From: a virus
Virus record (IMG/VR): IMGVR_UViG_3300030430_004661
Span: 10,512-74,511 of that record
Direction: 5' to 3' (one strand)
Length of the DNA: 64,000 nucleotides
Position 1 is the stretch's first letter. Every line of letters starts with the position of its first letter. This document shows, one piece after another, positions 17,488 through 57,372 of this stretch. Under the pieces are notes generated by a model, which was not told the DNA's origin, did not search any database, and saw nothing but the letters and a program-made list of their open reading frames with translations. The translations under genes and the position numbers were made by a program.

Positions 17488-17488
17488 A

Positions 17489-18115: not shown

Positions 18116-18420
18116 TAATTTATGTAGACATAGATGAAACAATATGTGTTTCACCACCAAACCGAGATTATTCACAAGCAGTTCCAATAGCAAACCACAT
18201 CAGTAAAATCAATCAACTTTATGATTCTGGTAACACGATTGTATATTGGACTGCTAGAGGCACTGGATCTGGTATTGACTGGAGAGAAGTGACAGAAAGA
18301 CAGTTTGAAACTTGGGGGGTAAAGTATCATGATCTTAAGTTTGGCAAACCAATATATGACTTGTTTGTTGATGATAAAAATATAAATTGTGAGAGGTTTT
18401 TTCATAATGAAAATATATGA
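18112..18420 (+). CDS. Small capless HAD-family phosphatase
   Basis: YVDIDETIC (DxD), WTARG, KP..DLFVDDK. Confidence 0.85.
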   Translation: MIIYVDIDETICVSPPNRDYSQAVPIANHISKINQLYDSGNTIVYWTARGTGSGIDWREVTERQFETWGVKYHDLKFGKPIYDLFVDDKNINCERFFHNENI

Positions 18421-29102: not shown

Positions 29103-29104
29103 AC

Positions 29105-29485
29105 ATGGAAAAAACTGTAACTGTAAAATGGCCGTTTAAGCAAGACGAAAATGGAGGGTTTGATAGCATTCCAGAAAGAGATTTTGTTGATGCTATAAAG
29201 TTTTCTATAAAAAATATATTACTAACAAACCCCGGTGAAAAAATATCAGATCCCCAGTTTGGAATTGGCTTACGACGATATTTGTTCTCCTTAAGTACCG
29301 AAGATCTTTCTTCTTTACAGGGAGAGATCACGTTTCAAATAAGAAAATATTTGCCATACTTGACCAAATTCAACGTGTCATTAGACCTTACGCAAGTTGA
29401 TTACAACAGATTTGCAGTAAGGGTTTCGTTTGAGGTTGGGCCAAAAGAAATCAAAGATTTTCTAGATGTTGTGGTTAGTGTTTAA
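29105..29485 (+). CDS. Baseplate wedge protein, gp25/GPW family
   Basis: IKNILLTNPGEKISDPQFGIGLRRYLF...KYLPY. Confidence 0.9.
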   Translation: MEKTVTVKWPFKQDENGGFDSIPERDFVDAIKFSIKNILLTNPGEKISDPQFGIGLRRYLFSLSTEDLSSLQGEITFQIRKYLPYLTKFNVSLDLTQVDYNRFAVRVSFEVGPKEIKDFLDVVVSV

Positions 29486-29501
29486 CAAAAATTCACAAAA
29501 A

Positions 29502-29509
29502 CTATTTAT
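29502..29509 (+). promoter_or_regulatory. CTATTTAT motif in a hairpin loop, candidate late promoter
   Basis: CACAAAA-actattta-TTTTGTG (29494-29515) upstream of the gp6-like gene. Confidence 0.55.
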
Positions 29510-29530
29510 TTTGTGCTTGAGGAACTTTTA

Positions 29531-31330
29531 ATGCCAAAAAGAAAAAATATAAAGATAAATTACACGAATAGAGATTTTGATTCTATCAAAACAGATCTGG
29601 TTGAATATGCCAAGAGGTATTATCCAGACGTATACCAAGACTTTACAGATGCGTCATTTGGATCAATGGTGTTTGACTTGGTTTCTTATGTTGGCGACAA
29701 CATATCTTTTTACTTAGATTACCAAGTTAATGAGTCATTTTTAGAAACCGCAATAGAACCAGCAAACGTCCGGAAACATTCTAAAAGTCTAGGTTATACT
29801 TACTATGGTAGCCCTGTATCTTTTGGTGTAGCGTCGTTTTACATAATGGTTCCGGCAAACGCTGATGGTTTGGCCCCAGACACAACATATATACCGACTT
29901 TAAAAAAGAACTCGACGTTTAAGTCTTCAAATGGTGTGAGCTTTGTTTTACTTGAAGATGTTGACTTCTCAGATTCCAAAAACGATGTGGTTGAGGCAAA
30001 GTACAATTCTACAACAGGCGGTCCAACTTATTATGCGATTCGAGCACATGGTCAAGTTTCATCTGGAAAGCTTCAAATGGTTGAGGTTGACTTATCTAAT
30101 TCGTCATTTAAAAAGTTTAGAAGAGTTAGAATAGGTAATTCTGATATATCAGAGATAATAAAAGTTGTCGATGATAGCGGAAATGAATATTTTCAAGTTG
30201 ACTATCTTAGTCAAGAAACAGTGTTGATGGATACAACTAATCCAAATGCAAGAGCAGACGGTGTTAGAAGCATCATGAAGCCTTTCGTAACTGCTCGACG
30301 ATTTGTGCTAGAGCAAGATCCAAGCGGAACATACTTACAGTTTGGTTTTGGATCTGAGAGTGATGATGACTCTGGATTAGCAGACCCGTCCCAAGTGGCA
30401 ATAAACCTACACGCAAGAGATTACATCAGCGATAAATCTATCGACCCCAACAAGCTCTTGGGCACTGATAAGCTAGGAGTATCTCCAACCGGTGTTATCC
30501 TAAAGGCAATATACAGAGTCAACGACTCAAGTAACGTAAACGTCGGTGCTAGAAAGCTTGACAAAGTTAACAATGCAACTCTGACGTTTAATGACCCAGA
30601 TGTTTTGAATAGTAATATCAAATCAATTGTTGTCGGCTCCCTAGAGGTAACAAATGAAGATCCAATCGTAGGTCAAGTTGTCGATCAAAATGCTGAGGAA
30701 ATAAAAATATTTGCAAAAAATACATACGCTGCTCAAAACCGAGCAGTGACTAAACAAGACTTTGAGGCCATAGCATACAATATGCCAACCAAATTTGGAC
30801 AAATAAAAAGAGTTAACGTTATTAATGACCCGATGTCAACAAACAGAAAGCTTGCAATGTATGTACTAGGATCAGATAATGATGGTAATCTTGTTAGATC
30901 AAACGACAGAGTGAAACAGAATCTTAAAACTTGGTTGTCTAGATACAAGGGTATAAACGATCACATTGAGATCTTTGATGGAAAGGTGGTAAACTTTGGA
31001 ATTGACTTTGAAATAGCAGTTGACAGAAGGTTTAGCAACGATAACATCCTAAATGAATCAATAAACAACTTAAAGAAGTTCTATAATAACAAGCTCTACA
31101 TGGGCGAGCCAGTATACATAACCGACATTTACAATGTTCTAGCAAAAACTAAGGGCGTAATAGATATTAAAAAAGTTGATGTATTTAATAAATATGGTGG
31201 ATCATATTCCACAATTCCACTAGACTTTGAGAAAATACGATCAAAAGATGGAACTTACTACAAAACACCTAAGAATGTGGTGATGGAGCTAAAATTCCCA
31301 GAAAGAGATATAAAAGGAATCGCTAAATGA
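29531..31330 (+). CDS. Baseplate wedge subunit, T4 gp6 / baseplate J-like
   Basis: YTNRDFDSIK, YVGDNISFYLDYQVNESFL, LQFG.G, AQNRAVTKQDFE. Confidence 0.9.
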   Translation: MPKRKNIKINYTNRDFDSIKTDLVEYAKRYYPDVYQDFTDASFGSMVFDLVSYVGDNISFYLDYQVNESFLETAIEPANVRKHSKSLGYTYYGSPVSFGVASFYIMVPANADGLAPDTTYIPTLKKNSTFKSSNGVSFVLLEDVDFSDSKNDVVEAKYNSTTGGPTYYAIRAHGQVSSGKLQMVEVDLSNSSFKKFRRVRIGNSDISEIIKVVDDSGNEYFQVDYLSQETVLMDTTNPNARADGVRSIMKPFVTARRFVLEQDPSGTYLQFGFGSESDDDSGLADPSQVAINLHARDYISDKSIDPNKLLGTDKLGVSPTGVILKAIYRVNDSSNVNVGARKLDKVNNATLTFNDPDVLNSNIKSIVVGSLEVTNEDPIVGQVVDQNAEEIKIFAKNTYAAQNRAVTKQDFEAIAYNMPTKFGQIKRVNVINDPMSTNRKLAMYVLGSDNDGNLVRSNDRVKQNLKTWLSRYKGINDHIEIFDGKVVNFGIDFEIAVDRRFSNDNILNESINNLKKFYNNKLYMGEPVYITDIYNVLAKTKGVIDIKKVDVFNKYGGSYSTIPLDFEKIRSKDGTYYKTPKNVVMELKFPERDIKGIAK

Positions 31331-32763
31331 CAATAAAAAGATACTTCGCAGAAGCGGACAATACAATTACAAACGCATTTCAAGAAAACTTGACACTGCG
31401 AGGTACTGGCTCAAATATGGGAGCAGCAGATATATTAGAGGTTTTTTCAATATATGGTCAAGCAACTACGTCCTCCGCAGAGCTTTCAAGAGTGTTATTA
31501 CAGTTCAATGTGGATGATATTTCAACAGACAGAACTAATGGAAAAATTCCTGCGTCCGGCAAGGTCAGCTTTTTCTTAAAGATGTATAACGCCGAACATA
31601 CAAGAACCACACCAAGAGATTTTAGGCTAACAGTTTCGGCTGTGTCACAATCTTGGCAAGAGGGTTCCGGTCTAGACATGGAAAACTACACAGATAAGAC
31701 TTTTAGTATCACTGGATCTAACTGGGTCAAAAGATCGGGCTCAGCTGCTTGGGAGTCGGCTGGTGGTGACTATCATGCATCCCCAACTTTCGAAGCCAAA
31801 TTTCAGAACGGTCGTGAAGATATGGAGTTAAATGTTACATCCTTGGTTGAGGAGTGGATAGCAGGAACTAAAAGCAACTATGGCTTTGGTGTAAAACTTA
31901 CAGATGCATCAGAGGCTATGCAAAAGTCTTTTTATACAAAAAAATTCTTTTCTCGAACAAGCGAGTTCTTTTACAAAAGACCGGTTCTAGAGGCTAGGTT
32001 CAATAATGCGATAAAAGACGACAGAGGATATTTTTATGCATCCTCGTCCTTAGCACCCCCAGATGACAATATAAACACAATATACCTATACAACGTAATA
32101 AGAGGCAGACTTAGGAATATTCCTGCCGTTGGCGATGGTGCAGTGTATGTGGATCTTTATGATGCGACTGGGTCATCACATGAGGCTAGAAGCTTGTGTA
32201 TAAATACGCCTGCAACTGGCGGTATACATTCAACAGGGATTTACTCTGCGTCAGTTTGCATAAGTACCACTGCTTCAATTTTGCATGATGTTTGGCACAA
32301 CGGCGCAGGAACACAATACCACACTGGCACAATATACATAAAAACATTTGAAGCGGAAGATTACAATCCAAACACAAAATATGTTTTGTCAATTAGCAAC
32401 ATAAAAGAGTACTATCAAACATCAGAAGTTGCTAGATTTAGACTCTATACAAGACCAAAAAATTGGTCACCTACGATATATACTGTCGCCTCAAGTGTAC
32501 CAGAGACAACAATCATACCATCTGGCGCATTCGAGATTAAAAGAATAACCGACGGTTTAAAAGTTATACCATTTGGAACTGGTTCAGATCTACATACAGG
32601 ATTATCTTATGACGTTAGTGGAAACTATTTTGATCTAGATCTATCGATGCTAGAGGGTGGGTATTCGTATGGCATAAAATTTGCATTTTATGATGATATA
32701 AGATCATCGTGGCAATGTCAACCCTATGAGTTTAAATTTAAAGTGAGAGAAGATGAGTATTAA
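31327..32763 (+). CDS. Structural protein with a DNRLRE-like beta-sandwich domain
   Basis: SRVLLQF, SWQEGSG, W..AGGD, LNVTSLVEEW...NYGFGVK, FFSR, P.LE. Confidence 0.6.
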   Translation: MTIKRYFAEADNTITNAFQENLTLRGTGSNMGAADILEVFSIYGQATTSSAELSRVLLQFNVDDISTDRTNGKIPASGKVSFFLKMYNAEHTRTTPRDFRLTVSAVSQSWQEGSGLDMENYTDKTFSITGSNWVKRSGSAAWESAGGDYHASPTFEAKFQNGREDMELNVTSLVEEWIAGTKSNYGFGVKLTDASEAMQKSFYTKKFFSRTSEFFYKRPVLEARFNNAIKDDRGYFYASSSLAPPDDNINTIYLYNVIRGRLRNIPAVGDGAVYVDLYDATGSSHEARSLCINTPATGGIHSTGIYSASVCISTTASILHDVWHNGAGTQYHTGTIYIKTFEAEDYNPNTKYVLSISNIKEYYQTSEVARFRLYTRPKNWSPTIYTVASSVPETTIIPSGAFEIKRITDGLKVIPFGTGSDLHTGLSYDVSGNYFDLDLSMLEGGYSYGIKFAFYDDIRSSWQCQPYEFKFKVREDEY

Positions 32764-35700
32764 AAGACCAGCAATTTTTAAATCAGCCAATTCGGCTTCT
32801 GTGAAGATAGAGTCACCTAACTTAATAACAAGAAAAATGCAAGAAAGGGAGACGTTCGTACCCCCAATAGATTTTTCAAGCGCCTCTAACTTTGTAAGAT
32901 TTGGATCAGCCAAAGAATATTATGCTGAAAGTATAAAACGAATATACACAAACTACCCATACGATGGATCTGCTAAAGAGAAGCTCGTATTTGAACTATC
33001 ATCTTCATTTCTGGACAGATACGTCCTAAATCAGTTGTATCCAAAATCAAAAGGATCGGCTCGATTTGGCTACGATTCGCACGTTGTAATTAATAGAGGA
33101 TTCCAAGAGGCGACAACAGATTTCACACAATCACTTTCAAACTTATTTAGAAATAAAAATGTTCCACATGATACTTCGAAAAGAAGAAAGCAAACTTTCT
33201 TTTTTAATTTCGATGATGGTTTTACTTTTGAATGGTGGATGCGAAAAGGTGGATGGACTAATGCATCGGAGACACTTTTTGAGGCTTCATCATCTCAAGG
33301 TTTTCTAAAAATTATGTTGTCTGGATCAGATGATGGCACAGGACCAGTAAGATTTTACGCTTCATCTTCTACTGAGATACCATTAACATCTTTGGCATCG
33401 TCCACGATCACCACAGCATCGGTAGGTGATGGGACATTCCACCACTATGCGCTCACTCTTTTCAGATCAGCATCTTCAATAGTAAGTAATTTTTACATTG
33501 ATGGTGTATCAAATAACAGAATCACAAACCACACTGACATAACCAATATAACAGACATGATTACTGGCTTCTTGGGTTCCGGATCATACGGTTTGCTTTC
33601 TGCGTCTGTTGATGACTTTAGGTTTTGGAACAAAAAGCAAAGTTCTGAGAAGATATATTACTATTACAAAACAGGTGTTGACGGTGGCGCTAGTACAGAC
33701 GACTACAGAAAAGAACTGGGTGTGTACTACAAGTTCAACGAGGGTATAACGAACACCGCATCAGTAGATAGAATAGTTCTTGACTATTCCGGTCGAATTG
33801 CTAATGGATATTGGAACAATTATGTCGCCGCTAACAGATCTACTGAATCTGGTGTCCCGAACGAGGTTGGCGATTTCATAGTCAGATCTAACCACCCAGA
33901 GGTGGTCGGTTTAAACACCAGACTTGAAACAAGCGGATCACAATATGACTCAAGTAACTCTATGTCTCTGTACGATTTAGTACCAGCATGGATTAGAGAG
34001 GACGACGAGGCCAGCAACTCTGAATTGAAAAAGCTAGTTCAAATAATAGGGTCTTACTTTGATACGTTATTTTCGCAGATTGAATCAATTGTAGATCTTA
34101 AATCTAAAAGATACTTTCAAACGACAGACAAGCCGCTACCATTCTCCAGACAACTCCTTGAAAACCAAGGAATCGTAGCACCAGAGATTCTCATAAATAA
34201 GACTGTTTTAAACTTCTTCTCCGAACGAGATGAAAACGGAGTTATATACGAAAGAGATCTAGAGGAACTAAAAAACCTAATATACAACAATATATACGCT
34301 AACATTGACTTCATTCTAAAATCAAAAGGAACGTACAAGTCATACAGGAATCTTATAAGGTGTTTTGGTGTAGATGACGAACTTGTTAAGCTAAACTTAT
34401 ACGTTGATAATGCCACACAATACTTGCTGGACAAAAATTCACATACATCTGAAAAAACAAAACACATAAACTTTAACAACCCAGATAGGTTTGGAGCAAG
34501 TGTATACCAGCAAAATACCATTTCTGGCTCAATGGGAGCCCAATTAGAGAAGAATTTGGCCATAACTGCTGAAGTTGAGGTAATGGTACCTAAGAAACCT
34601 GAGCAGACTGATTCTTTCTTTTTTAACACTCCATTTTACACATCTTCTGTATTTGGTCTAGACTCGGTAGATCGAGATGGTGTACAATACAGCTCATCGG
34701 CTTTCTATGATAACTTTCAAGTTTATCTGGTTACAAGCCCACTAGACCCAAATCGTGCCAAGTGGATGCTCAAGCAAATAAGGCACTCTGACTCAACTAC
34801 TGTTTCCCTTCTGACAACAGACATGTACGCAGATATCTATAACAATCAAAGGTGGAACATCGCAGTAAAAGTATACCCACTAGGATATCCGTTTGCTGGA
34901 TCTTTCTCTACGTCTGACGATCCCGACTATACAGTTGAGTTTTACGGTGTTTCACACAATATGGACGAGGTATTGCACGAGTTCAAGCTCACCTCTTCGA
35001 TATCAGGTGAAAATGCAAGATCACTACTATCTTCCAACAAAAAGTTGTATGTTGGTGCGAGACGTAGTAACTGGACAGGATCTGTGCTGCAAAAGAGCGA
35101 CGTAAAGATTGCCGCTGCATCACTGTATTTTGACAAGCTTGATGATGCTTCTATAAAGGCCCATAACAAAGATCCATCCAATTATGGTCACAATAAAGTA
35201 TTTGGAAACCCTACGGTATTTGCCACTGACATAACAGACAGACACATACCAGCACAACACAGCTTGGCACTGCATTGGGACTTTCAAGCAGTAACTTCAT
35301 CCGACTCAGCAGGTACATTCACAGTTGAAGACTATTCTAGTGGATCTTCTGTCGGCAGGTACAACTGGCTTGAGAACATTATCAACGCCAAGCATCAAGG
35401 AGCAGGGGTTGGTTTTCCCGTGTCATCAACAAAAGTAATCTCCAATGAATTTATATTCGCTAGTAAGAAGAACCTACCAGAAATATCTTTTGACTCTGAT
35501 ACCACAAAGATCATGACAGATAAGGATATCTATCTTTTTGAAGATGAGGATATCAATGACAATATTTTTATTTTTGAAAAAAGCATGTATCAAGCAATTT
35601 CTCAAAAGATGTTGGACATGTTTACCAGTATTCATGAGTATTCTAATCTGTTCGCTAAACCCATAGATCGATACAAAAAGGACTACAAAAAGCTAGCCCA

Positions 35701-38700
35701 TATCCGAAGGTTGTTCTTTGAAAGAGTTAGTGGCTCGATGGATCTGGATAGATTTACAAATTACTTCAAGTGGATTGACGCATCGATATACAAGTTCATA
35801 GAACAATTGCACCCCGGAAACGCTAAGTTTCTCGCTGGCATAAACGACACTGTAGAGTCTCACATATTAGAGAGACCAAAATATCAACATCTTCTTCCAA
35901 CCCTGACAAAAAGAGACGAGTTACCAGAGGGTATTGTAAAAGGCACAAATGAGCTTCGCTATAACTGGAGAGTTGGACACGCTCCTTTACTACCGGCTGC
36001 TACAGGAACCGTAACTTTAAATAACGTTGGGATTGGTAATTTTTACAACACTGTGATAAGACTTACTGATACCGCCGGTGTATTGAAAAGATATATTTTA
36101 AAGAACACTGCAACCTCCGACACAGGAACCCTTGAGGATCTTGATCCGGGCTCAGGCACTGTTAGTCATATCGTGGTAGGAATACAAGGTTTGACATATC
36201 AAACAGCCGTCAATCAGTTAATTGCAGCCATTGAGTCACAAAACGGTCATCGAGGCAGCATAATTGCAACGAGTCCTAGTGCCGGTGTGCTAGAGCTAAA
36301 ACAAGAAACTGGAGGAGAATCAGGAAACGTTGACATTGTGGCACAAGTAACCTATGTCGATGGATCTACGACTTGGGCAGCTTACGGTATAGGTACAGTG
36401 TCAGGGTTCTCCGGTGGTGAAGACAAGAATAACACAAATTGCCTATGGCAAAAAGAAAGAAAAGAACTGGGATCTGACAGGCATAAGCTTAGATCCGCAA
36501 TAATAACGCACACAACTGGAACCGTGCCATCATTTGGCGACAACAACAGAGATATCTACGGAGGGTCGTCATATGCCTTGAAAAGATTCTCGAAGCCATA
36601 CAACTTTGAAGGCACTGAGCAGGTTACAATACACGGTGGAACAAACTATGCAAGAGGCAAAGATAGAGATTTTATCAAACCTTTGATATACATTCATGGC
36701 CCCAAATCAAACATCGGTGTTCCCTTAAACGTTGTGGTTCTAGGTGTTGGTGAAGGTAAGGGCATAGTGGGTGTGGACTCCTGTCAAGACGATAGAAACC
36801 ACCCACTTAATAAACCAAAATACGGCACGACTGCTATTGTCGGCAGATTCTCTGATTTAGATGGCAGCTCGCCAATTAGCAGTTCTAACCTCGCAACGGT
36901 CACTACATCAAACTTTGTTTATAACATAAAGGGTGACAAAGTATTTCCATTCAACTTGGTATCGGGATCTGAGAGCACTGGATACAATGAGACTGTTTTT
37001 AACAATTATGAAGACAACGCCATAATTACTAACCTGCATTCAGATACTACCGATGCTACAAACGAGATTCCCATGCAAGGGCCTTTTACAGAGCAGTGGG
37101 TTGGTGGTAGACAATCTAGACATGTCGGACTAAACAGACACAACAGCACATTCTCATCTCTTAATAAAATAGATGGCCCAACCAATCGAGCAGAGGAATG
37201 GCGCTTACTTTTTGGCGAACATCCGGATGAATCTATCAAAGACGGAGCGCTTGGATTTACAGGGCCAGACTATGGCGGACCATACCCAGATGAAACTAGG
37301 CCTTTTGCTATTCACTACCGTGATGGTCGTGCAAAGCGTCCTTTGAATGTTGCTAACATACAATATGGAACTGGATCAAAAAATATAGGAAACTATCAAA
37401 ACTCATATGAGATAGTAAACACTGTTGGTAGAAAAGAGAACAACTCTCTATTCAAGTTCTTGGGAAGCACTACGTCATTCTTGCCGGGTGATATATTGAG
37501 CATCTTGCCACAAACAACAAATCCACTAAATCTTTTAAGGGTTAATTACAACAGTAGGCAAGGTAATGTTTTTGGAACAGGTGAGTCTGGTAGAATCAAC
37601 GCAGTAAGAGACTTTGCTTTAGCAGACAATCTAGCGTTCAAGTCTGGGTCTTTTGCGTCTGGATCTTTTGTCGTTACAGGTGCTGCACAGTTTAGAACGA
37701 ACTACACTGGATCGTTTACAATTCAGCCCATTCCAAAAGCAGGAACCCATTCAACTGTAACTTTTACTGCTACTGGATCGACCATTATTGAAAGACCTTA
37801 CTCAGCTTCGTTTACAATGGGCACAGTGCCAAGAACAGGAAAGTCTGCTTATTTTGACTACAACCTTAGTGGTCACGCTTCTACATGGGATGCAAACACT
37901 GTCGCTCTAGAAAACTTCACAGTATCAGCATCGTCTGACACCGGCTCTGAAATATTTAGAGTATTTCTAGACAAAGACGGAAACAACCCCAACACTGGAG
38001 ATAGAGATCTAGTAGTACCCGGATTTAGAAGAGCAGTTGAGGCAACAGGTCAGCTCATTGCACTGGCTACCGCTGATCCATTTACTGGGCTAAATGACAA
38101 TGATTTTACGGTTTCGTTCTGGTTTAACAATAAGATGGCAGATATCAACTCATCCAATATGATACAGTTTGCCGACAGCGGAAGTATGATTCATGCAATT
38201 TATCCAGATGATGATATTCGAGTAACCATAAGAAGTAGTGCAACTTTTAAAAATGTTGATTTTGATGCCAACACAGCAACTGCAAAGAGTGGATCGTGGC
38301 ACCACTATGTTGTTACCATGCCGATTACTGCTGGCTCTAGTTCTGTACCTTTTATGTACGTTGACGGAGTTTTTCTAACAGCGTCTCAAGGAGCACAGAC
38401 TTTGGGTGGCTCTAGTCGAAACGTTGATAAAATGATTCTAAAAATAGATGATGGTGCTGCTTTTCAAGACATAATTTTGTACAATAGAATACTAACTAGT
38501 GAAGAAGCAGTGTCCGTATATAATGGCGGTTCAAATTTTGATCCATCCACAGCAGCATTTTCCAGCAACGTTGTAAGTTGGTTTAAACTTGGAGAAGAGA
38601 GAGATTGGTATGAATTAGGTTACCAACTAAGTGGAACACTAGATGATATTGGAGGAAACGACGATAGATTCTTCAGTTCAAGCTTTGGAACAGATGCAAA

Positions 38701-43186: not shown

Positions 43187-43187
43187 A

Positions 43188-48083: not shown

Positions 48084-49045
48084 TGTCATTTTTCAACAAT
48101 AAAGAAGATGTGTTACACATAGAACTCACACCACTCGGAAGACAAAAGCTTTCTGAGGGTAGACTCATGCCGGCATATTATTCTTTTTTGGATGAGGATG
48201 TGCTTTACGATCTTGGTGCCGCTAACTCTAGTGAATTAAATCATCAAGTGAAAGATAGAATTCTAATTGAAACTCCGTACCTAAAGCCACAAACAAACTT
48301 CACAGACCTTGAGGCCAAGATTGTTGAAAAAACACCAGACCTTACTAGTGACACGATTAAGTATAACTTAAACACTATGGGTACATCAAAAAACGTTGAT
48401 GACTTCGCTCCAACATGGGAGATTGTATTTCTCAAAAACGAAATAGTCGATTCGGCTAGAAACCTATCGTCAAGCTATGGGTTTCACCAAGTCCCGCAAA
48501 TAGATTTAGAGATAGAGTATACAATATCAGCAGGCAATATCAACATTGATATAACAGACTTAGGAACGTTTGGTAGTCCCAACTTAGCACCAGACGAAGT
48601 CTTTCCAGATGGCACATATTTAAAGATCGAAGAAGAAGAAATTCTTGCTAGGATCTTAGAAAGAAATGGTTTTCTTCATGGAAAGTCTATACAAGTTGAA
48701 GCGTTTAAGTTTGACAACCCAACATCAGAAAGGTTGATACCACTTACGTTTTTAAAAAGACAAGAGCTTATACAAGGAGATATTTTGGTAGATCAAGAAG
48801 AGATCGAGCTCAACCCAGAAAGAACACCACAGAATGTGGAGTACTATTTTGATTTTCGAGTAGACAAGGAAATACCAATACTAGAAATATGCAAGGGCAT
48901 TGGTAAACTAAATAGCCAGAACCCGATATCAGATTTTGAAATAGTGTGTCCAGATATTAGAAAACGCAACCCGACAGATATTTATGGTAGTAACATTACA
49001 GATCAAGATATAGAAGACTGTACAACGAAAGAGGAGTGTGACTAA
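48083..49045 (+). CDS. Putative structural protein
   Basis: N-terminus (IELTPLGRQKLSEG...F.DEDVLY) resembles that of 54174..55127. Confidence 0.6.
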   Translation: MSFFNNKEDVLHIELTPLGRQKLSEGRLMPAYYSFLDEDVLYDLGAANSSELNHQVKDRILIETPYLKPQTNFTDLEAKIVEKTPDLTSDTIKYNLNTMGTSKNVDDFAPTWEIVFLKNEIVDSARNLSSSYGFHQVPQIDLEIEYTISAGNINIDITDLGTFGSPNLAPDEVFPDGTYLKIEEEEILARILERNGFLHGKSIQVEAFKFDNPTSERLIPLTFLKRQELIQGDILVDQEEIELNPERTPQNVEYYFDFRVDKEIPILEICKGIGKLNSQNPISDFEIVCPDIRKRNPTDIYGSNITDQDIEDCTTKEECD

Positions 49046-52000
49046 TGAGCATACCAGAAGTGGGCTTAGAAAATCTTCCGAACTGCTATATCAACGGCGT
49101 AGAAATATACAAGGGCGGTAGAAAAAAAAATAAGTATGTTATATCGGTCTCTGTAAAAGATGTGAAGCAATTTGGTTCATGGACTTGGTATGATGAAAAA
49201 CAATTGTATAATAATATGCAAATGATTGTGGTTCTCTCGCACAATGAAAGTTTTAATTCCGACGTAGAATCCGGGTCAGTTGTGCTTACTAGAGACCTAA
49301 TGAACAACTATAAAGAAAATTTAGACTATAAAGTTGTGAACGTGAAGAAAAAGTGGGATTTAGAAAAAATACCCAAAGAAGAAACAGAAAACGGAGTAAT
49401 CCACACTTTTCCTTTTACTTTTAAAATGTTTAGTAGAAAAGATGCACAAAATTTAAGAGTATATGCTGCGTTGTTTATAAACAGATCAAAGTTTTCTGCT
49501 AGCAACGCTGTAGACCTATATTCTAAATCCTTAGCATATGGAGGACCAGTAGCCTCTGATCGTATAAAACAAAACGGCAAATTGAGAAGACGCGCCAATA
49601 TACTTACAAAACCAGACGGATCTATTCACATAGGACCATATCACCTCCATAGAAGAAAACGTATGGAGGGGTCTTTTCATACACCAGCGCCACATAAAAA
49701 CTTAAATCGTAAGAAAGTACAAAATCCAAAGATAAAAGACTATACGGACAGGAAATTTCCACGCCCTACTATGGACACTATTGACAAAGGACAGATGTTT
49801 TTCAAGACTTATGCCTGCAAAAATGATAGATCACTTTCTATGTTTTTCGGTTTTGACACAAGAGCAATTTTGTTAAATAGAAGTAAGATGGCACAAAAAA
49901 TTGCAAACTTTAATCCAATTTTTGTCAATGATCTTTTGTCTAGAATTAAAATAGAAAAAATGACAGTGATGAAAACAAAAGTTATGAAAGCTAGGGGTTT
50001 TTCTAAACTAGGGGTGCCCAAGTTTAATAGAAGAAGAAGCCTACACAGAAAATTAGTTTCAAGGTCTAGAGATAGGTTCCCTTCGGTTTTTGAGGCAGAT
50101 GACAACATAAAAGAAGTTTTCTTGTCCCCAAACCCAGCACATAGACAGTTTAAACTAACAGAGCAGTACCATGCAAACTCACAGTATCCAAAAGGCGATT
50201 ATACATACTCATTGCAGCTAACTTTTACTGATCCATCTTATGATTTTGTAAATGCGATGATAGAAGAGATAAAAGAAGCAAATGCAAGATTCAAGACTTA
50301 CTTATTTAGGCTTGATCGGCCATCAAGTGTTTTAAGTGACGACAACACCCTATCAGAAATGTTTAAAAGTCGGGAGATGTCTTTGAAGCCTAGGGTTGAA
50401 GATTTGGATTGGTTTGTTGCACTAAAGATGTACGTAAAATATTATTCAATTATTTTAAATTTGTCTACCCAAGAGGAAAACGATCTTCTCAGAAAGACGT
50501 CATTTATGGTTCACCCTTTATTCGCAACTAGAAGAAGCATACTGTTTTTTAGTAAAAAATTTAGAAAAATGTATTTTTATATAAGAAAGTTTTTTAACTT
50601 CTCTGTGAAGACAAATAGCGATGTAGGTACACAAGGCGTTGGCTCCTCAGCATCGGAAAAAAACAAAATACAAATTAGAAAAACTTTAAAGCGAAATCTA
50701 AACTTTGAAACTGAAGTGGCGTTTATAAGTTATATTCATTCAAAAAACGGTATGATTAGAAAAGCAAAACTAAAGCAAATTGCACAAAGAAACCGAAGCA
50801 AATTTTTTCGGAGAAAACCAAACTTTTCAAATACTCAAATATCTAGAATCAACACTAGTGCTGACAACGGTATTTTGGCAGCATTTAATAATATTAGTAA
50901 TTCAAAAGTTAGCTTTTTATCCCCAGTATCAGTATCAGAAAAAGATAGAAATGATGAAATAAAACTAGGCAGTCTAAATTCTTCATTTAGACAAAGAAAA
51001 GAAATATCAGAAATGATGGAAAGAGTAAGAAACAAAGAAATTAAAAAAGACAGTCCAACAAAACCTAGTAATAAAAGAAAAAAAAACAAGTTAGTAATAA
51101 AGTCGGCAAGAGAACGAGAATTTTACACTGAAAACAAACGAGATGCTTTTAAAGATACAGATAAAAACTTGGGAAAAAACAACCAGTTTCAAACAGAGGA
51201 TCCCGATTTTAGAGAATCTCAATCACAGAGAAGATCAAAATCTGTTAAGTCTTCCAAATTTAAAAAAAATAAGAGAAAAAACAACAAATACGTTGCAGCG
51301 TCAAATCCTGACACAGCAAAACTATTAACTGCCGCCAACAATAACAAATCTAAAGCACATAATTTACCACTGTCAATGAGGGCGTTATTTGGATCCGAAT
51401 CAAGATCGGTAGTTTCAAATGTAAAATCAATTGGCTCCAATCCTGACATATCTGCCGATCATGAAACGTCAGACGTTGTTGATTTAGTTTTCAATACACC
51501 GGCTAGAGTTGAGTATCTTAGTGGATATAGGACAAACTCTAAGGGAATATTGAATGTTAAGGCTCCCATTTTTAAGCTGCTAACAGACTCAGAGCTGGAT
51601 AATTTACAGACCCCGTTCATGTGTAGAATGAGCTTTTACGAGTTAAAGGGAATTACTGAAGAAAAAGAAGGTTTTGAAATCGCAAATAAATACTTTATTG
51701 TTAATAGCAATACAGACGTGAGTGCAAAAAACCAAATTCAAGTAAGCACGGAATTTATCACAGATCAGCAAGTCTTAAAAATGTTTGAAGGATTACAAGC
51801 TACAAAAATAGAATACTTAAGCTCAAACTTTGTACGCCAAGCTCGTGAGCGCCTCGGTCCAATCGACGCTCAGAACATCCCAGTTCAGAAAAGAAAAGCT
51901 ATTCCGGCGCCTAGGCCAAAGAGATCCAAGCTTCCAGAAAACGAAAGGCCAGAAAGAAACATCAGTCCAGCACCGAAGCCCCGAAGGAGCCCTAGAAGAC

Positions 52001-52239
52001 CACAGGCTGGTGCATCTGGTACAACAGAAACAAGTGAATCTAACACCGCAGTAGAGACACAAAGTGAATCTAGGCAACGCCCGAACCGTAGACGTCAGCG
52101 GTCTAGGCAGCGTGCAAACCGTAGACGTGAGCAATCTACCACAAGGACAAGATCAGAGAGATCATCGCGGTCAAGATCTAACTCAAGAAGATCATCGCGA
52201 TCTAGAACGAGAGGAAGATCTGGTGGAGGAGGATACTAA
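49045..52239 (+). CDS. Large basic protein with Arg/Ser-rich tail ending GGGGY
   Basis: 1064 aa, K/R-rich; tail RSERSSRSRSNSRRSSRSRTRGRSGGGGY. Confidence 0.65.
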   Translation: MSIPEVGLENLPNCYINGVEIYKGGRKKNKYVISVSVKDVKQFGSWTWYDEKQLYNNMQMIVVLSHNESFNSDVESGSVVLTRDLMNNYKENLDYKVVNVKKKWDLEKIPKEETENGVIHTFPFTFKMFSRKDAQNLRVYAALFINRSKFSASNAVDLYSKSLAYGGPVASDRIKQNGKLRRRANILTKPDGSIHIGPYHLHRRKRMEGSFHTPAPHKNLNRKKVQNPKIKDYTDRKFPRPTMDTIDKGQMFFKTYACKNDRSLSMFFGFDTRAILLNRSKMAQKIANFNPIFVNDLLSRIKIEKMTVMKTKVMKARGFSKLGVPKFNRRRSLHRKLVSRSRDRFPSVFEADDNIKEVFLSPNPAHRQFKLTEQYHANSQYPKGDYTYSLQLTFTDPSYDFVNAMIEEIKEANARFKTYLFRLDRPSSVLSDDNTLSEMFKSREMSLKPRVEDLDWFVALKMYVKYYSIILNLSTQEENDLLRKTSFMVHPLFATRRSILFFSKKFRKMYFYIRKFFNFSVKTNSDVGTQGVGSSASEKNKIQIRKTLKRNLNFETEVAFISYIHSKNGMIRKAKLKQIAQRNRSKFFRRKPNFSNTQISRINTSADNGILAAFNNISNSKVSFLSPVSVSEKDRNDEIKLGSLNSSFRQRKEISEMMERVRNKEIKKDSPTKPSNKRKKNKLVIKSAREREFYTENKRDAFKDTDKNLGKNNQFQTEDPDFRESQSQRRSKSVKSSKFKKNKRKNNKYVAASNPDTAKLLTAANNNKSKAHNLPLSMRALFGSESRSVVSNVKSIGSNPDISADHETSDVVDLVFNTPARVEYLSGYRTNSKGILNVKAPIFKLLTDSELDNLQTPFMCRMSFYELKGITEEKEGFEIANKYFIVNSNTDVSAKNQIQVSTEFITDQQVLKMFEGLQATKIEYLSSNFVRQARERLGPIDAQNIPVQKRKAIPAPRPKRSKLPENERPERNISPAPKPRRSPRRPQAGASGTTETSESNTAVETQSESRQRPNRRRQRSRQRANRRREQSTTRTRSERSSRSRSNSRRSSRSRTRGRSGGGGY
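52069..52206 (+). repeat. Short imperfect tandem duplications encoding the R/S-rich tail
   Basis: AACCGTAGACGT at 52084 and 52117 (33-bp period); AGATCATCGCG at 52159 and 52189 (30-bp period). Confidence 0.7.
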
Positions 52240-54137
52240 TGGCACTAGTACAAAAAAAGAAAATAACAGACTCTACTACACGTAGGAGGTTTTCAAAAAA
52301 ATATAAATCAAGAATTACTTTTCTTACTTCTGCTGAGAAGAGTATTGGTTTTATACGAGAGAAGGTGGTAAAACAATCGGCTGACTGGAGGGGTACAACA
52401 GTGGGAACTCGACTTGCTGGGTTAGACCACACAGTATCATATAATGAACCAGCGATCATAACGCAAGTAGAAATGAAAGACACTTCAGCCGGTGTGTCTT
52501 ACTATTTTGTTGAGCCGACTTTTAACTTTCTCTCGTTAGAGTGGGAAGATTTTTTTGCTGAGAGACGTGAAACCTCTGCGCCATGTATATATTCAGAGAC
52601 CGACTTCACACCAGAGCTCAAGGCATTTCCGAAAAGAAGGATTAACCGACAAACATCTGTGAACTTTAATTTACTCTTGAAAGATAATCACACAGCGGCT
52701 AATCAAGTTCGCCATGAGAACGTTATGTTTGTGAAAAATTACAATTATAAATCAGATAACTACAAAAAGAAAGATTACCCGTATTACATAAACATTGCTT
52801 TGGCCAACAGAACCAATACAACATTTAGAGACAAACTCGTGGAATTAAACTTATTTAACTTACTATTGGAGGATTATATACAAAGCGAAAAACAAACCAG
52901 ACGCTTTGGAGATCTTGATCTATCCATATTCAACCTTGAAACATGGGTGGGCAACAGCGACTTTTCAATCGGAGCAGATAACTTGGTTGTTCTGGGCGAT
53001 GCTAGGATGCAAGATAGTACGTTCACAAGAGGCTTAAAGAAGCTAGAGTTTTTGGGTTTCTTAAGAAAAAAGATGAAGGAAAAACAAAGAACTTTAAAAG
53101 AGATCCTCACAGGTCAACCCTGCTACACAGAAGTTTTATTTTACAGAGTTGATAAATTTGATGAACAAGATGTTTTCATACAAAGTTTTTGGATTCCCGC
53201 CGAAGATACTTTCAATCTCATGGACACACAAGTCAAGTACGGTGTTAAGTATAAGTATCAGTGCTCATCATACAATGTAGTGGTCGGCGCAAACTACAGA
53301 TATGAAGTCAAAAGAAACACCGTTGATGCCACAATAGAACACTCGGTTCAGCTTGTAGAGATACCAATGTTTCGCGATGAATGCAGAATAGTTCAACCTC
53401 CTCAGCCTATGCCAGAGATTATGTTTCACAACAACAAGTATAGCAGAAGCGAAATCAAGATGTCTTTGCAACTAAATCCAAACACTTACATAGCAGATTT
53501 TATACCACTGGAACCGTTTGAAGAGGATCAAAATGATCTGATAGCCGAATACAACAAGCTGAAAAGAAAAAACTACTTCCACTATGAAACTGAGCATGCG
53601 TTTTTTGAAGTATTTAAGATGGAATCTATACCACGAACTTATGATGAGGTAGATAATTTTAAATTAGCAGACCTTAGAAACCCATCACCATCGATATCTG
53701 CTACGCTTTTTGATAGAATATTGATGGATAAGCCATATTATTATGTTGCAAGATCAATAAACTCTCACGGTCTTTTGTCCAATCCAACACCTATTTATGA
53801 GGTAAGATTAACAGAAGACGCAGATGAAACGTTTTTGCATGTGGATGTTGTTGGGTTTATACAAAAGAAGCAAGAAGTACAGAACACAGTAGACTTTAGT
53901 AAATTCATACAATTGATACCGGCATCTGACCATACCATCTTTAATTCTAATCAAGAGTCTGTCATAAATGCAAACTCACTATATGGAAAGATAGATAAGA
54001 TAACACTGGGAATTGCCCAGAATCCAATCTGGGGAGAGAAGTTTAAGTTCAGATTTACATCGAACGATACTGGTAAGAAAATTGATTTTAATGTGACGGT
54101 AAAATTAACTAAGAAGAAAACACTTGAAGATTTTTAA
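52239..54137 (+). CDS. Putative structural protein
   Basis: DTQVKYGVKYKY and YYYVARSIN..G..SNP resemble FN3-like strands; structural module context. Confidence 0.55.
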   Translation: MALVQKKKITDSTTRRRFSKKYKSRITFLTSAEKSIGFIREKVVKQSADWRGTTVGTRLAGLDHTVSYNEPAIITQVEMKDTSAGVSYYFVEPTFNFLSLEWEDFFAERRETSAPCIYSETDFTPELKAFPKRRINRQTSVNFNLLLKDNHTAANQVRHENVMFVKNYNYKSDNYKKKDYPYYINIALANRTNTTFRDKLVELNLFNLLLEDYIQSEKQTRRFGDLDLSIFNLETWVGNSDFSIGADNLVVLGDARMQDSTFTRGLKKLEFLGFLRKKMKEKQRTLKEILTGQPCYTEVLFYRVDKFDEQDVFIQSFWIPAEDTFNLMDTQVKYGVKYKYQCSSYNVVVGANYRYEVKRNTVDATIEHSVQLVEIPMFRDECRIVQPPQPMPEIMFHNNKYSRSEIKMSLQLNPNTYIADFIPLEPFEEDQNDLIAEYNKLKRKNYFHYETEHAFFEVFKMESIPRTYDEVDNFKLADLRNPSPSISATLFDRILMDKPYYYVARSINSHGLLSNPTPIYEVRLTEDADETFLHVDVVGFIQKKQEVQNTVDFSKFIQLIPASDHTIFNSNQESVINANSLYGKIDKITLGIAQNPIWGEKFKFRFTSNDTGKKIDFNVTVKLTKKKTLEDF

Positions 54138-54144
54138 ACAAAAT

Positions 54145-54152
54145 CTATTTAT
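54145..54152 (+). promoter_or_regulatory. CTATTTAT motif in a hairpin loop, candidate late promoter
   Basis: CAAAAT-ctattt-ATTTTG (54139-54156); AGGAG RBS before ATG 54174. Confidence 0.55.
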
Positions 54153-54173
54153 TTTGATTAATAGGAGACATAT

Positions 54174-55127
54174 ATGGGATTTCTAGATAACAGCGGTGAC
54201 ATCATACTAGATGTTGTGCTTACAGACCATGGCAGAAAAGAGCTTTCAAAAGGTGACGGTTCTTTCAAAATTAGCAAGTTTGCTTTAGGAGACGATGAGA
54301 TTGACTACTCTTTGTACAATACATTGCATCCTAGTGGATCATCCTTTTACGATCTAGAGATCTTACAGACTCCAGTCTTAGAAGCATTCACTGACAATGC
54401 AGCGTCCATGAAGACAAAACTCGTTACATATGAAAACCTAGAGCTGTTGTTTCTACCAGTCTTAGAGCTGAACGAATTGACAGGAATAAACAAAAGATAT
54501 GACGGTCTTGACTCATTTATTGTAGCAGTGGATAGACAAACAGAAGATGACGATGAATCCACAACAACTAAAGGAATCGGACTCACATCCACTGGTGCTG
54601 AAAGACAAGGCGTCATATTTGGAGAGTCTTTAGATCGTGGGGCTTCAATTGTAGTCGATCAAGGACTAGACACCACACAGATCTCTGCTAAACAGAGAAT
54701 CGATCCAGACCTACGAGAAACCGAATACAGTATTCAGATTGATAATAGACTTGGATCAATCGTTGATGAAGGTGGTAACCAACTAGAGCTTAGTTATATT
54801 GATGATGATGATATTGCTTACTACGTTATATCTGAAGCGGAAGGTACAGCAGTAACAAATATCTCAAACTTAAGCAAGGCTAACGAAAGCCCAATAGCAG
54901 GACCAAGAGGATCTAGATTAAGATTTAGGATCAAATCTTCACTAGACCTCAACACAAGCAATTTTCTTTTCACAAGATTAGGTGGTACTACAACACTGTC
55001 CAACAGGACACCCGGTGGAGCAGGTACCACCACAGTTTATTATATCGACTCTATGGTAAGAGTCTCCGGTATGAATACAGGATATTCACTAGATATCCCT
55101 ATTCGTCTCGTTAAATTTAAATCATAA
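54174..55127 (+). CDS. Virion structural (baseplate/tail-associated) protein
   Basis: ILDVVLTDHGRKELSKG..FKISKFALGDDEIDY resembles the LT..G...I..FALGD start of tail-collar/baseplate-type proteins. Confidence 0.6.
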   Translation: MGFLDNSGDIILDVVLTDHGRKELSKGDGSFKISKFALGDDEIDYSLYNTLHPSGSSFYDLEILQTPVLEAFTDNAASMKTKLVTYENLELLFLPVLELNELTGINKRYDGLDSFIVAVDRQTEDDDESTTTKGIGLTSTGAERQGVIFGESLDRGASIVVDQGLDTTQISAKQRIDPDLRETEYSIQIDNRLGSIVDEGGNQLELSYIDDDDIAYYVISEAEGTAVTNISNLSKANESPIAGPRGSRLRFRIKSSLDLNTSNFLFTRLGGTTTLSNRTPGGAGTTTVYYIDSMVRVSGMNTGYSLDIPIRLVKFKS

Positions 55128-55141
55128 AATAGGAAGTAATT

Positions 55142-56209
55142 ATGGCTGAAGCAGGCGCATTTAAAATTTTAAGTGAAGACGATATCGTCTCAACAAGAAC
55201 TCTACTACACGAGGCAATCCCAATCACAGGAACTATCGTAAGTGGAACATATCAGGATAGAAACATTAAAAATCCTTCTCATGGTATGTTTCAATCTGTA
55301 TATGATTATCCTTTTCTGAGTTCATCTTCGAATCACATCTTTGATATTACTGTGGGTGTCAGCACTCATTCAGGAAAATATAACGCTACAAACAATCAAG
55401 CATCTAAGAAAAAGAACGTGTACAATCAAATGGCACAAATTCTTGTTGGCTATGATATAACAGGATCTGTATTAAGGTTTGATGAAGATGGTGATCTGAC
55501 TGGCGGGACTAAGATCGATAACGCCATTTTCATCCCCTTTTCCAGATTGCTAGTGAAAGATGAGATCAAGAAAGGCACATTTAGTATGACACTTGGTATG
55601 AATGCAGGACACGCTGATCCGTTTGGAACAGGAAATAATTTGACAATTACAGATGCATCTGGATCTAACAATTACTTTGTAAACTCACCTGCTGGTGAAT
55701 ATGGGATCTTATATGCTCAAGGTTTGCCGGCATCAAAAGGCTACAAAAAATGTGGCTTACTTTATTATCAAGCAGGCATTGCAGTCTTAACTGCTTCACT
55801 CTTTAGTCAAGACGCAGGAAATGGTTTCTTATCTGCATCGGCTATTATGAGCAACGAAGGTTCTGATACAATTGATAAACAGCTGACAGGGTCAACTATT
55901 CAAACAATTGCAAACAGCCTGAGACACCGTATTGGGAACGTTCAGTTCAATAACACAACCGAGCTAAACTCAACAATTTATTTCTGTCGTGCTAATCACA
56001 ACGAGTTTAATTACTCAACAAACCCAACATACTTGACCGGATCTAAGATTCGAGTTAAGACAAACTCAACAGATGAGCCCGTATCTTATATTACGAGTAT
56101 TGGCTTGTACAATGATAGAAATGAACTTATGGCAGTTGCAAAATTGTCAGAACCTCTTAAGAAAACACCGAGCACAGAATTTACACTTCGATGCCGACTT
56201 GATTACTGA
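55142..56209 (+). CDS. Virion structural (baseplate/tail-associated) protein
   Basis: C-terminal EFNYSTNPTY...YITSIGLYND..ELMAVAKLSEPLKK...RLDY. Confidence 0.65.
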   Translation: MAEAGAFKILSEDDIVSTRTLLHEAIPITGTIVSGTYQDRNIKNPSHGMFQSVYDYPFLSSSSNHIFDITVGVSTHSGKYNATNNQASKKKNVYNQMAQILVGYDITGSVLRFDEDGDLTGGTKIDNAIFIPFSRLLVKDEIKKGTFSMTLGMNAGHADPFGTGNNLTITDASGSNNYFVNSPAGEYGILYAQGLPASKGYKKCGLLYYQAGIAVLTASLFSQDAGNGFLSASAIMSNEGSDTIDKQLTGSTIQTIANSLRHRIGNVQFNNTTELNSTIYFCRANHNEFNYSTNPTYLTGSKIRVKTNSTDEPVSYITSIGLYNDRNELMAVAKLSEPLKKTPSTEFTLRCRLDY

Positions 56210-56217
56210 TATGACTT

Positions 56218-57372
56218 ATGGCCTTATTCAAATTCCATCCAGACGACATCTTCATAAACACTCTTGAAGCCTATCCAGAGTTTTCTTTCTACATTCATAG
56301 CGGTACAGTATTCATCGACAGCATGCCCCACAGAGAGGGAACTAATGCTGACGTTGGTAATGGGTTTGTTTCTCTATATGAGCTTAACAACGATAAGCCA
56401 GCAGCACAAAGAATACAGCCAACAATGATCAAAGATGCGTCTAGAGAGACGATACGAAGTATCTCGCAGCAAGACTTTGCCCTAAAGTATAACTACGATG
56501 GAGAGACTATCACTGGATCGTATGACCTATCTGCCTCTATTGCGAGAGACTACTTTGGACTAAACTCATCCGCTCGAACGAGACTCAATGCACTTAGGAA
56601 CTCCTTAGACCATTACAAGTTTATATCGCCCCAATATGCTTTTACTTCTAAACATGGAGACAAATCAATTCAAGAGGCATCTGTCATCTCTATCTCGTCA
56701 ATATTTTATGGCGAGAAGATTAAAAGAGGATCTGTGTTACTGGAGTACTTTATCTCAGGATCTCTTATAGGACGCTTACAAGATGTAGGATACAACGGTG
56801 AACTTATACAAACGGCACCTGTTGGCTCAACAGGATCTGGTTCCTGTGCAGGAGTTATCTTATATAAAGAAGGTGCAATCGTTTTAACAGGATCGTGGAC
56901 ACTAGGTGACAACTCTATAGATTATGTCGCATCCACGAGCACCACAAACAAATGGACACAGTTTGGAGACGGGTTACACAAAAATATAACACAGAACGCG
57001 ACTGCCTTATCTGCATCGTATTTCATTTCTTATCAAGGTGTTACACACACTAATACCATGATGATGATGGCACATGCAAAGTATGCTGAACTAAACCACT
57101 CAAACAACCCTACGTATAAAGATTACAGTCATCCTAACTTTGGAATATCAGTGACTTCTTCCAATTCATACATCGAGCTAAAGGTCCCACCAAAAAATAT
57201 TGTAGATACAGAACTAACAGATGTCATACCAGACTTTCAAAAAGAGACTTACATATCTAAAGTTGCAATCTACGATGACGATAAAAATCTAATTGGTATC
57301 GCTAAAGTTGCAACACCTGTAAGAAAAACTGAAGATCGTCAATATATTTTTAAATTAAAGCTTGACATATAG
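56218..57372 (+). CDS. Virion structural protein, paralog of 55142..56209
   Basis: Shared IK.G, ELNHSNNPTY...YISKVAIYDD..NLIGIAKVATPVRK...KLDI. Confidence 0.65.
   Translation: MALFKFHPDDIFINTLEAYPEFSFYIHSGTVFIDSMPHREGTNADVGNGFVSLYELNNDKPAAQRIQPTMIKDASRETIRSISQQDFALKYNYDGETITGSYDLSASIARDYFGLNSSARTRLNALRNSLDHYKFISPQYAFTSKHGDKSIQEASVISISSIFYGEKIKRGSVLLEYFISGSLIGRLQDVGYNGELIQTAPVGSTGSGSCAGVILYKEGAIVLTGSWTLGDNSIDYVASTSTTNKWTQFGDGLHKNITQNATALSASYFISYQGVTHTNTMMMMAHAKYAELNHSNNPTYKDYSHPNFGISVTSSNSYIELKVPPKNIVDTELTDVIPDFQKETYISKVAIYDDDKNLIGIAKVATPVRKTEDRQYIFKLKLDI

Follow-up and report, generated by a model that had tools for sequence, protein, structure and literature searches.

An ordered tripeptide of putative baseplate and fibre proteins in an aquatic myophage clade: a possible tag for cytoplasmic O-glycosylation

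Chloroviruses glycosylate their own capsid protein at non-canonical sites by means of virus-encoded soluble enzymes, and the flagellins of Campylobacter, Helicobacter and Aeromonas are O-glycosylated in the cytoplasm with pseudaminic or legionaminic acid, at many surface Ser and Thr residues, in a Maf-dependent reaction whose sites follow no strict sequon and favour hydrophobic surroundings. Among the phages, the nearest demonstrated case to the one discussed here appears to be that of the mycobacteriophages, in which phage-encoded glycosyltransferases glycosylate virions (Freeman et al. 2023, as summarised in PMC12619734) and in which the glycans decorate the C-terminal ends of capsid and tail-tube subunits, with no defined sequon. 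In its working logic, the closest system would seem to be the bacterial GtfA/GtfB (Gtf1/Gtf2) pair, which primes serine-rich repeat adhesins and the Lactobacillus plantarum protein Acm2 with O-GlcNAc, and in which an N-terminal DUF1975 mediates partner and acceptor binding (PMC5796085). The subject of this report is a stretch of 64,000 nucleotides (hereafter the window, in which all positions given below are counted) from a 74.5-kb contig of an uncultured myophage, IMG/VR record IMGVR_UViG_3300030430_004661, positions 10,512 to 74,511. Five putative structural proteins of the window carry a dense tripeptide, [ST][GAS]S, and a sugar locus of the same window encodes two adjacent GT4-type glycosyltransferases. 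That the fuller form of this motif, hydrophobic-[ST]-[GAS]-S-hydrophobic, may mark the outer baseplate and fibre proteins for O-glycosylation in the cytoplasm, with the GT4 pair as its writer, is a reading of the sequence that we find plausible and hold tentatively.

The five proteins, like the products of all the long open reading frames (ORFs) of the window, are encoded on the + strand, and are named here by their start positions. They comprise a 478-aa protein (31327..32763), which lies directly 3' of a gp6-like gene and has a weak, sub-cut-off match to Disaggr_repeat; a giant protein of 3477 aa (32753..43186) with five Laminin_G_3 (LamG) domains (E 3e-42) and with motif copies along its whole length; a 1631-aa protein (43188..48083); and two paralogues, A of 355 aa (55142..56209) and B of 384 aa (56218..57372), which have 24% identity and are homologous over their C-terminal halves. 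Compared with whole-protein shuffles, the motif is found 9 times against 2.4 expected in 31327 (z 4.2), 65 against 20.8 in 32753 (z 10.2), 19 against 4.7 in 43188 (z 6.8), 8 against 1.6 in 55142 (z 5.4) and 8 against 1.6 in 56218 (z 5.1). By the same measure, the remaining 38 ORFs of the window all lack an excess at p<0.05, and there is no further enriched ORF in the upstream 10.5 kb of the contig. The four genes that lie between 43188 and 55142 (48083..55127, +) act as internal negative controls, with 1 copy against 0.3 in 48083, 3 against 3.4 in 49045, 0 against 0.7 in 52239 and 1 against 1.3 in 54174; of these, 49045 is Ser-rich and 54174 matches 55142 in its S/T/G composition. The enrichment holds even with 20-residue local shuffles, under which the five proteins pooled give 109 copies against 36.0 +/- 5.7 (z 12.8, ~3x chance) and 9 copies are seen against 11 expected in eight further proteins from the structural block. 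An initial annotation of this DNA had described just such a division, with the five proteins rich in the motif and their neighbours and the enzymes poor in it, and it is borne out on both sides; the strings that it quoted are also all present, namely ITGSV, LTASL, LSASA, LTGST and LTGSK in 55142, ITGSY, LSASI, ISGSL, LTGSW and LSASY in 56218, and KSGSFASGSF at residues 1630-1639 of 32753.

What is enriched is a selected, ordered tripeptide, beyond any effect of composition. When all 8000 tripeptides are scanned without bias, those with real counts that come out on top are SGS (28 against 5.5, 5.1x; Poisson p 9e-12, or 7e-8 after multiplication by 8000), TGS (20 against 4.3, 4.7x) and SAS (18 against 4.5, 4.0x). 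Each position of the motif is restricted. With x-G-S, the excess is limited to x = Ser or Thr, Asn standing at 2 against 3.8 and Asp at 4 against 3.2; between a hydroxyl residue and Ser it is limited to G, A and S, K, R, L and Y being rarer there than expected; and with Thr in the third position it is lost, [ST][GAS]T being near expectation in the five proteins (31 against 27.6, local shuffles), with SAT at 0.6x and SGT at 1.9x in the tripeptide scan. Mirror and neighbour patterns of equal composition show no or weak enrichment. Hydrophobic residues occupy 48% of the -1 positions and 48% of the +1 positions against a background of 31%, in agreement with the earlier remark that such a residue often precedes the motif, and Pro is avoided next to it. 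In other words, the arrangement of a hydroxyl residue, a small residue and Ser between hydrophobic flanks looks like the recognition site of an enzyme. It does not look like a generic Gly turn, for which the usual turn partners Asn-Gly and Asp-Gly should be enriched and are not, nor like the O-glycosylation sequon of the Bacteroidota, D[ST][AILVMT], which occurs 19 times against 25 expected in the five proteins, with Asp before the motif at 3 of the 109 sites. All six Ser codons are used at the third position (TCN 87%, compared with 76% for all Ser), and BLASTP among 11 proteins of the block finds the paralogue pair 55142/56218 as the only relation, whether internal or mutual. DNA repeats, codon bias and recent duplication are therefore ruled out as sources of the motif, and two further statements of the initial annotation stand: that variable codons speak against a DNA repeat and, at the level of sequence, that the motif is spread over unrelated proteins.

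The motif is also conserved. At the protein level, relatives of this phage are found in Flavobacterium phage immuto, Microcystis phage Mel-JY01, Rhodothermus phage RM378 and a 484-kb uncultured phage, and IMG/VR holds more than 586 relatives at ~60% identity, on contigs of up to 200 kb. In six of the relative loci and in one complete genome, G001, the orthologues of the motif-rich proteins are enriched and those of their neighbours are not (the G001 orthologue of 32753, for instance, has 39 copies against 12), and partial ORFs that match the position of 43188 in relatives are enriched too. Within G001, no proteins other than the five baseplate/fibre orthologues and two weaker outliers show the excess, the sheath being marginal at 7 against 3.6. 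Among homologues collected from marine viromes, there are 4-11 copies in each of the 81 members of the 55142 family (family A) and 6-17 copies across the 77 members of the 56218 family (family B), and 31327 has 9-15 copies in 10 IMG/VR homologues and 13 conserved motif columns. Across the three alignments made (81, 77 and 11 homologues), 8-13 columns per protein bear the motif in 25-100% of the sequences, with T and S exchanging at position 1 and G, A and S at position 2, while the Ser is kept in 52-81 of 81 sequences in family A and in 52-67 of 77 in family B. The third Ser is retained more than other serines in the three families, at 0.72 against 0.36 (p 0.004), 0.74 against 0.43 (p 0.024) and 0.70 against 0.55 (not significant). 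The paralogues 55142 and 56218 have just 2 of ~14 motif columns in common, and copies at non-conserved columns occur at 1.2-1.6x expectation, compared with 0.4-1.0x for control patterns. It seems, from these alignments, that the number of motifs is maintained more than their place, which speaks against a property of any single fold, even though conserved sites hold most of the excess.

Structure prediction adds a little to this picture. In an AlphaFold2 model of 55142 (pLDDT, the model's own confidence score, 70.5), 5 of the 8 motif copies lie in confident coil beside beta strands, 1 at a strand-helix junction and 2 in low-confidence regions; the corresponding model of 31327 (pLDDT 46) is unusable. 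A Foldseek search with the 55142 family returned nothing at E<=0.001, and VIA-align gave a best Z of 4.4 and a list in which phage tail-tip and baseplate chains stand amid many unrelated entries, with no convincing fold.

The enzymes most closely associated with the motif are the GT4 pair. GT4 no. 1, the candidate priming enzyme (7514..8773, +), matches Glycos_transf_1 (E 5e-12) and keeps the catalytic EX7E, and GT4-like no. 2 (8770..9990, +; GT4-conflict, E 1.5e-6) overlaps it by 4 bases. Glycos_transf_1 occurs in 14 of 15 long related contigs, including all 8 complete genomes among them, and in 13 of 14 contigs there are two Glycos_transf_1/GT4 matches ~1.2-1.5 kb apart. In a further 50 contigs an orthologue of GT4 no. 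1 is found in 25, at 57-81% identity, the remaining 25 stopping less than ~43 kb upstream of the 55142 homologue and so short of the position of the pair; no natural loss of the pair is seen among related contigs that span its position. A search of INPHARED yields clear orthologues of GT4 no. 1 from four phages alone, immuto, Mel-JY01, LR756508 and RM378, and this set coincides exactly with the phages that have the 55142 family. The second GT4-like gene adjoins the first in at least immuto, Mel-JY01 and RM378, and its EGFGxxxxE is kept in 4 of 5 orthologues, which makes a catalytically dead partner of the GtfB kind unlikely for GT4 no. 2. In RM378 itself (NC_004735.1 10616-11893) the second Glu of EX7E has been lost (GESWDYLLHN), and that copy may be inactive.

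Downstream of the pair lies a cassette of candidate glycan-elaborating genes (9990..19147, +), identified by Pfam and NCBIfam matches. It encodes a GT4 domain fused to a Maf/GT42-like domain (bringing the GT4 domains of the whole window to three) and two more Maf/GT42-like proteins; alongside them are NeuB and a CMP-sugar cytidylyltransferase, two PhyH dioxygenases, methyltransferases of the FkbM and TylF types, and a small ORF resembling a phosphatase. Neither the NeuB (E 4e-79) nor the CTP_transf_3 (E 8e-11) match reaches the equivalog cut-offs that NCBIfam sets for NeuB and PseI; the three MptE-like (Maf, PF01973) matches, at 27.6, 22.4 and 21.0 bits, fall below the Pfam cut-off of 34.6; and the closest solved structure to the protein at 13617 is a GT42 (lipooligosaccharide) sialyltransferase (E 0.002). 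The fusion protein, of 656 aa (9990-11960), joins a complete GT4 domain (Glycos_transf_1, residues 271-329) to the Maf/MptE-like domain (426-588), an architecture that suggests a two-step enzyme for sugar addition followed by capping. Of the 8 complete relatives, each of which has the motif-rich proteins, none has NeuB and one has Maf-like domains. Since the pair is present in every contig that spans its position and the cassette genes are mostly absent, the pair is the core of the locus and the rest is a variable cassette, which can only elaborate a glycan; the sialic-type genes are at most an elaborating module. The initial annotation had named the adjacent glycosyltransferase locus as a whole as the obvious writer of the motif: its first two GT4 genes are indeed conserved along with the motif, whereas most of the relatives in which the motif persists lack NeuB and the Maf/sialyltransferase-like genes.

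If the motif is indeed modified, the course of events could be as follows. The soluble GT4 enzymes 7514 and 8770 would prime the near-invariant third Ser, presumably the acceptor residue, from a nucleotide-sugar donor, acting on folded or folding proteins ahead of assembly. The phage-specific downstream cassette would then lengthen the chain, which in this phage might be capped with a modified nonulosonic (sialic-type) acid by the GT4-Maf/GT42-like fusion, NeuB, the cytidylyltransferase, the dioxygenases and the methyltransferases. The outcome would be a variable glycan coat on those parts of the virion that contact the host. Extending this to the whole group, one may picture an aquatic (marine and freshwater) myophage clade, made up of this phage, its relatives in IMG/VR (more than 586) and the phages immuto, Mel-JY01 and RM378, in which the GT4 pair would read the sequon for cytoplasmic O-glycosylation and a hypervariable cassette would give each phage its own virion-glycan 'serotype', here a modified sialic-type acid; this is a possibility that we put forward with limited confidence.

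Such a scheme can be set against each of the systems with which we began. With the mycobacteriophage system, as described in PMC12619734, there are in common the phage's own soluble glycosyltransferases near structural genes and, on the proposal made here, a cytoplasmic glycan coat on virion proteins. The differences are that glycans have been demonstrated there, while the present phage is known from metagenome sequence alone; that the sites proposed in this case are tripeptides in the interior of baseplate/fibre proteins, and belong to a marine myophage clade; and that the enzymes consist of a GT4 pair with a hypervariable cassette behind it. GtfA/GtfB is likewise an adjacent glycosyltransferase pair, which adds the first sugar in the cytoplasm to Ser in a Ser/Ala/Thr-rich context, with variable further glycosyltransferases extending the chain (PMC5796085). 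Both [ST][GAS]S itself and the [ST][GA]S-aromatic units that some of these phage proteins carry in tandem resemble its acceptor sequence. Here, however, a Pfam scan (E 0.01) finds no DUF1975 in either GT4 no. 1 or no. 2; both keep the catalytic EX7E, such that there is no evident chaperone-only partner; there is no sequence affinity past the GT4 fold; and the acceptors would be not long tracts of repeats but virion proteins folded into several domains, with no SecA2 export. Because DUF1975 is lacking and both enzymes look catalytic, the likeness appears to be one of resemblance rather than of membership. The best solved-structure match of GT4 no. 1 is to the chlorovirus protein B736L of PBCV NY-2A (PDB 3oy2, E 3e-9), though that is the enzyme of a eukaryotic algal virus with N-linked capsid glycans, and the likeness lies at the level of the GT4 fold, from which no information about the acceptor transfers. 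As to the Maf-dependent modification of flagellin, this phage does possess a nonulosonate synthase together with an enzyme for activation by CMP, as well as Maf/MptE-like transferases, and yet the model fails the test of co-conservation, given the rarity of Maf-like domains and the absence of NeuB in the relatives that keep the motif.

How far motif and enzymes go together beyond the immediate relatives was gauged in a panel of 12 whole genomes, in which all ORFs of at least 200 aa were scored and an ORF was called enriched if it had at least 5 copies and z of at least 3. In the genomes that have the GT4 pair, 7 ORFs are enriched in G001, 6 in immuto, 10 in Mel-JY01 and 2 in RM378. In those that do not, there is 1 in T4 (gp32, owing to a Ser run), 1 in S-PM2, 1 in BUCT-ZZ01 (gp5), none in Melnitz-3 and 2 in HTVC008M. 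The pooled ratio for S/T-rich proteins is 1.9-2.2 with the pair and 1.1-1.35 without it, save for HTVC008M at 1.8, and in T4 there is no excess in any of the 21 head, tail, baseplate and fibre proteins tested. Whether motif enrichment and GT4 genes co-occur across related phages was a check that the initial annotation named. In four genomes they do, although HTVC008M shows a mild excess without GT4 and the four belong to a single clade. The protein richest in the motif in a cultured phage, and so the most suitable for testing, is the tail spike of immuto (MW353176.1 97614-100775), with 60 copies against 20 expected, many of them in short tandem units (TASY, SGSF, TGSF) that are 4-9 residues apart.

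Several of the foregoing results weigh against glycosylation of the motif by the GT4 pair, and most of them lead to its chief rival, a structural or assembly role, in which the motif is an unmodified element such as a strand-entry turn or an oligomerisation or chaperone contact, and the pair is an unrelated lineage marker that decorates something else. The bulk of the motif excess is at conserved columns, adjoining a conserved hydrophobic residue, as a structural role would also give, and some copies, among them those of the immuto tail spike and of residues 1630-1639 in 32753, stand in short tandem [ST][GA]S-aromatic repeats of a sort typical of fibrous segments. Moreover, HTVC008M has no Glycos_transf_1 gene at all and nevertheless has two large, mildly enriched proteins (24 against 12 and 12 against 6, local shuffles), from which it follows that some excess can arise without these enzymes, although it is weaker there (~2x) and [ST][GAS]T is raised as well; gp5 of BUCT-ZZ01, another phage that lacks the pair, has 10 copies against 2.9. 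The four genomes with the pair form one deep clade and hence provide a single, phylogenetically non-independent association, which may merely mark a lineage. One of the outliers in G001 (167201-168568; 5 against 0.8) is a DnaB-like replicative helicase, not a virion protein, which a glycan coat would not predict. The S/T/G-rich 54174 and the Ser-rich 49045, in the same block, escape enrichment. Lastly, the GT4 enzymes bear no mark of protein-directed activity and could act on a host glycolipid or some other cytoplasmic acceptor, though modification of a host glycolipid on the cytoplasmic side would leave the motif unexplained. Against a purely structural role, on the other hand, stand the recurrence of the motif in proteins with no detectable sequence relation; the use of mostly different columns by paralogues that are homologous over their C-terminal halves; the lack of enrichment of Asn/Asp-Gly turn formers and the failure of Thr to replace the third Ser; and the absence of any excess from the baseplate and fibre proteins of T4 and from the composition-matched neighbour 54174. 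On balance, we judge a structural role to be less likely than glycosylation, albeit one that must be taken seriously. The proposal of the initial annotation that the motif is an O-glycosylation sequon is thus upheld in so far as the motif is ordered, recognition-like, conserved and found with the GT4 pair, and is weakened by the non-independence of that last association and by the exception of HTVC008M.

The remaining explanations appear less probable than a structural role. A selected hydroxyl motif, probably located in loops, would also fit some other modification (phosphorylation or acylation), or a surface rich in hydroxyl groups for the binding of host polysaccharide, with no part for the GT4 pair as writer, the data being silent on chemistry; yet Pfam and NCBIfam scans of the window ORFs (the three short terminal ones, 187, 524 and 63075, excepted) find no kinase or acyltransferase, a binding patch needs no strict order with Ser alone at position 3, and the GT4 pair is the sole candidate writer known to be conserved with the motif, all of which makes these options improbable. 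More improbable again is the direct placement of nonulosonic acid on the motif serines by Maf-like enzymes, with the sialic-type cassette as the writer. The presence of three MptE-like/Maf-type domains beside NeuB and a cytidylyltransferase would favour it, but NeuB is missing from 8 of 8, and Maf-like genes from 7 of 8, complete relatives that have the full density of the motif, all three MptE-like matches are under the Pfam cut-off, and a lipooligosaccharide sialyltransferase as the closest structure fits the capping of a glycan better than the priming of a protein. As to an artefact of S/T/G-rich composition, low-complexity runs or recent internal duplication, the five proteins are indeed above average in S, T and G, and two LamG copies of 32753 have SGSW and SAS.IWDWW in common. 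The persistence of the excess under local shuffles, the behaviour of patterns of the same composition, the BLASTP result and the ordinary count in the equally S/T/G-rich 54174 together refute it, and the chance that it accounts for the motif is negligible. With regard to the conserved job of the GT4 pair, a T4-style sugar on hydroxymethylated bases requires a hydroxymethylase of the thymidylate-synthase family; that family is absent from G001, Mel-JY01 and RM378, three phages that have the pair, which makes glucosylation of DNA unlikely.

Literature searches found no report of a [ST][GAS]S motif, and glycosylation of phage-particle proteins has been shown, as far as could be found, only in mycobacteriophages (PMC12619734). 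Were the motif truly a tag that the GT4 pair reads, virion glycosylation would become predictable from sequence in a very abundant group of aquatic phages, and the hypervariable sugar islands of these phages, which come without membrane or export genes, would be explained. It would point to sugar-covered fibre and baseplate surfaces, with effects on host recognition, on resistance to proteases and grazing, and on the stickiness of particles in sea water, and a compact combination of tag and enzyme pair would be at hand for cytoplasmic glyco-engineering. With three cultured relatives, immuto, Mel-JY01 and RM378, the proposal is directly testable.

The setting of these genes is that of a myophage whose capsid and tube genes lie beyond the contig, and for which a DNA-level search of INPHARED finds no near relative. 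The window contains a PIN-PhoH protein, a PD-(D/E)XK nuclease and the 12-kb sugar locus. After them come baseplate wedge genes of the gp25-like and gp6-like kinds, a series of unnamed proteins of very large size, a nuclease resembling RuvC, a primase, and Mre11 and Rad50 fused in one protein. The wedge genes (29099..31330, +) have no motif copies in either product and were recognised from GPW_gp25 (E 9e-10), phrog_219 (baseplate wedge) and tblastn matches to the wedge genes of immuto; by this similarity they mark the block as a predicted baseplate module. Neither Pfam/NCBIfam nor PHROGs gives a name to any of the five motif-rich proteins (PHROGs names the gp6-like wedge protein alone), and the ESM Atlas returns unnamed viral clusters only. 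The five are probably structural, to judge from their position after gp25 and gp6, from the LamG domains and from the fibre and spike annotations of immuto slightly downstream in the block.

Some further observations concern other phages and other genes. In the cyanobacterial siphophages S-CBS4 (L096:2878-4020) and Mae-JY09 (L098:2587-3771), a distant GT4 gene lies within the head-morphogenesis module, between the portal/capsid genes and the head-tail adaptor genes, and the motif excess in these phages is weak after allowing for local composition. CheckV scored 42- and 47-kb fragments (L026 and L039) of this ~190-kb phage type as 100% and 99% complete, and its completeness figures for this clade should be taken with caution. 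Towards the 5' end of the window, a protein of 1115 aa (1240-4587) with a single J-domain close to its N-terminus precedes the PIN-PhoH fusion (4565-5911). Towards the 3' end, an Mre11-like phosphoesterase (residues 4-211) and a Rad50/SMC ATPase (367-1035) are fused in one protein of 1048 aa (58913-62059), and the same fusion gene, encoding 1047-1069 aa, is found in relatives.

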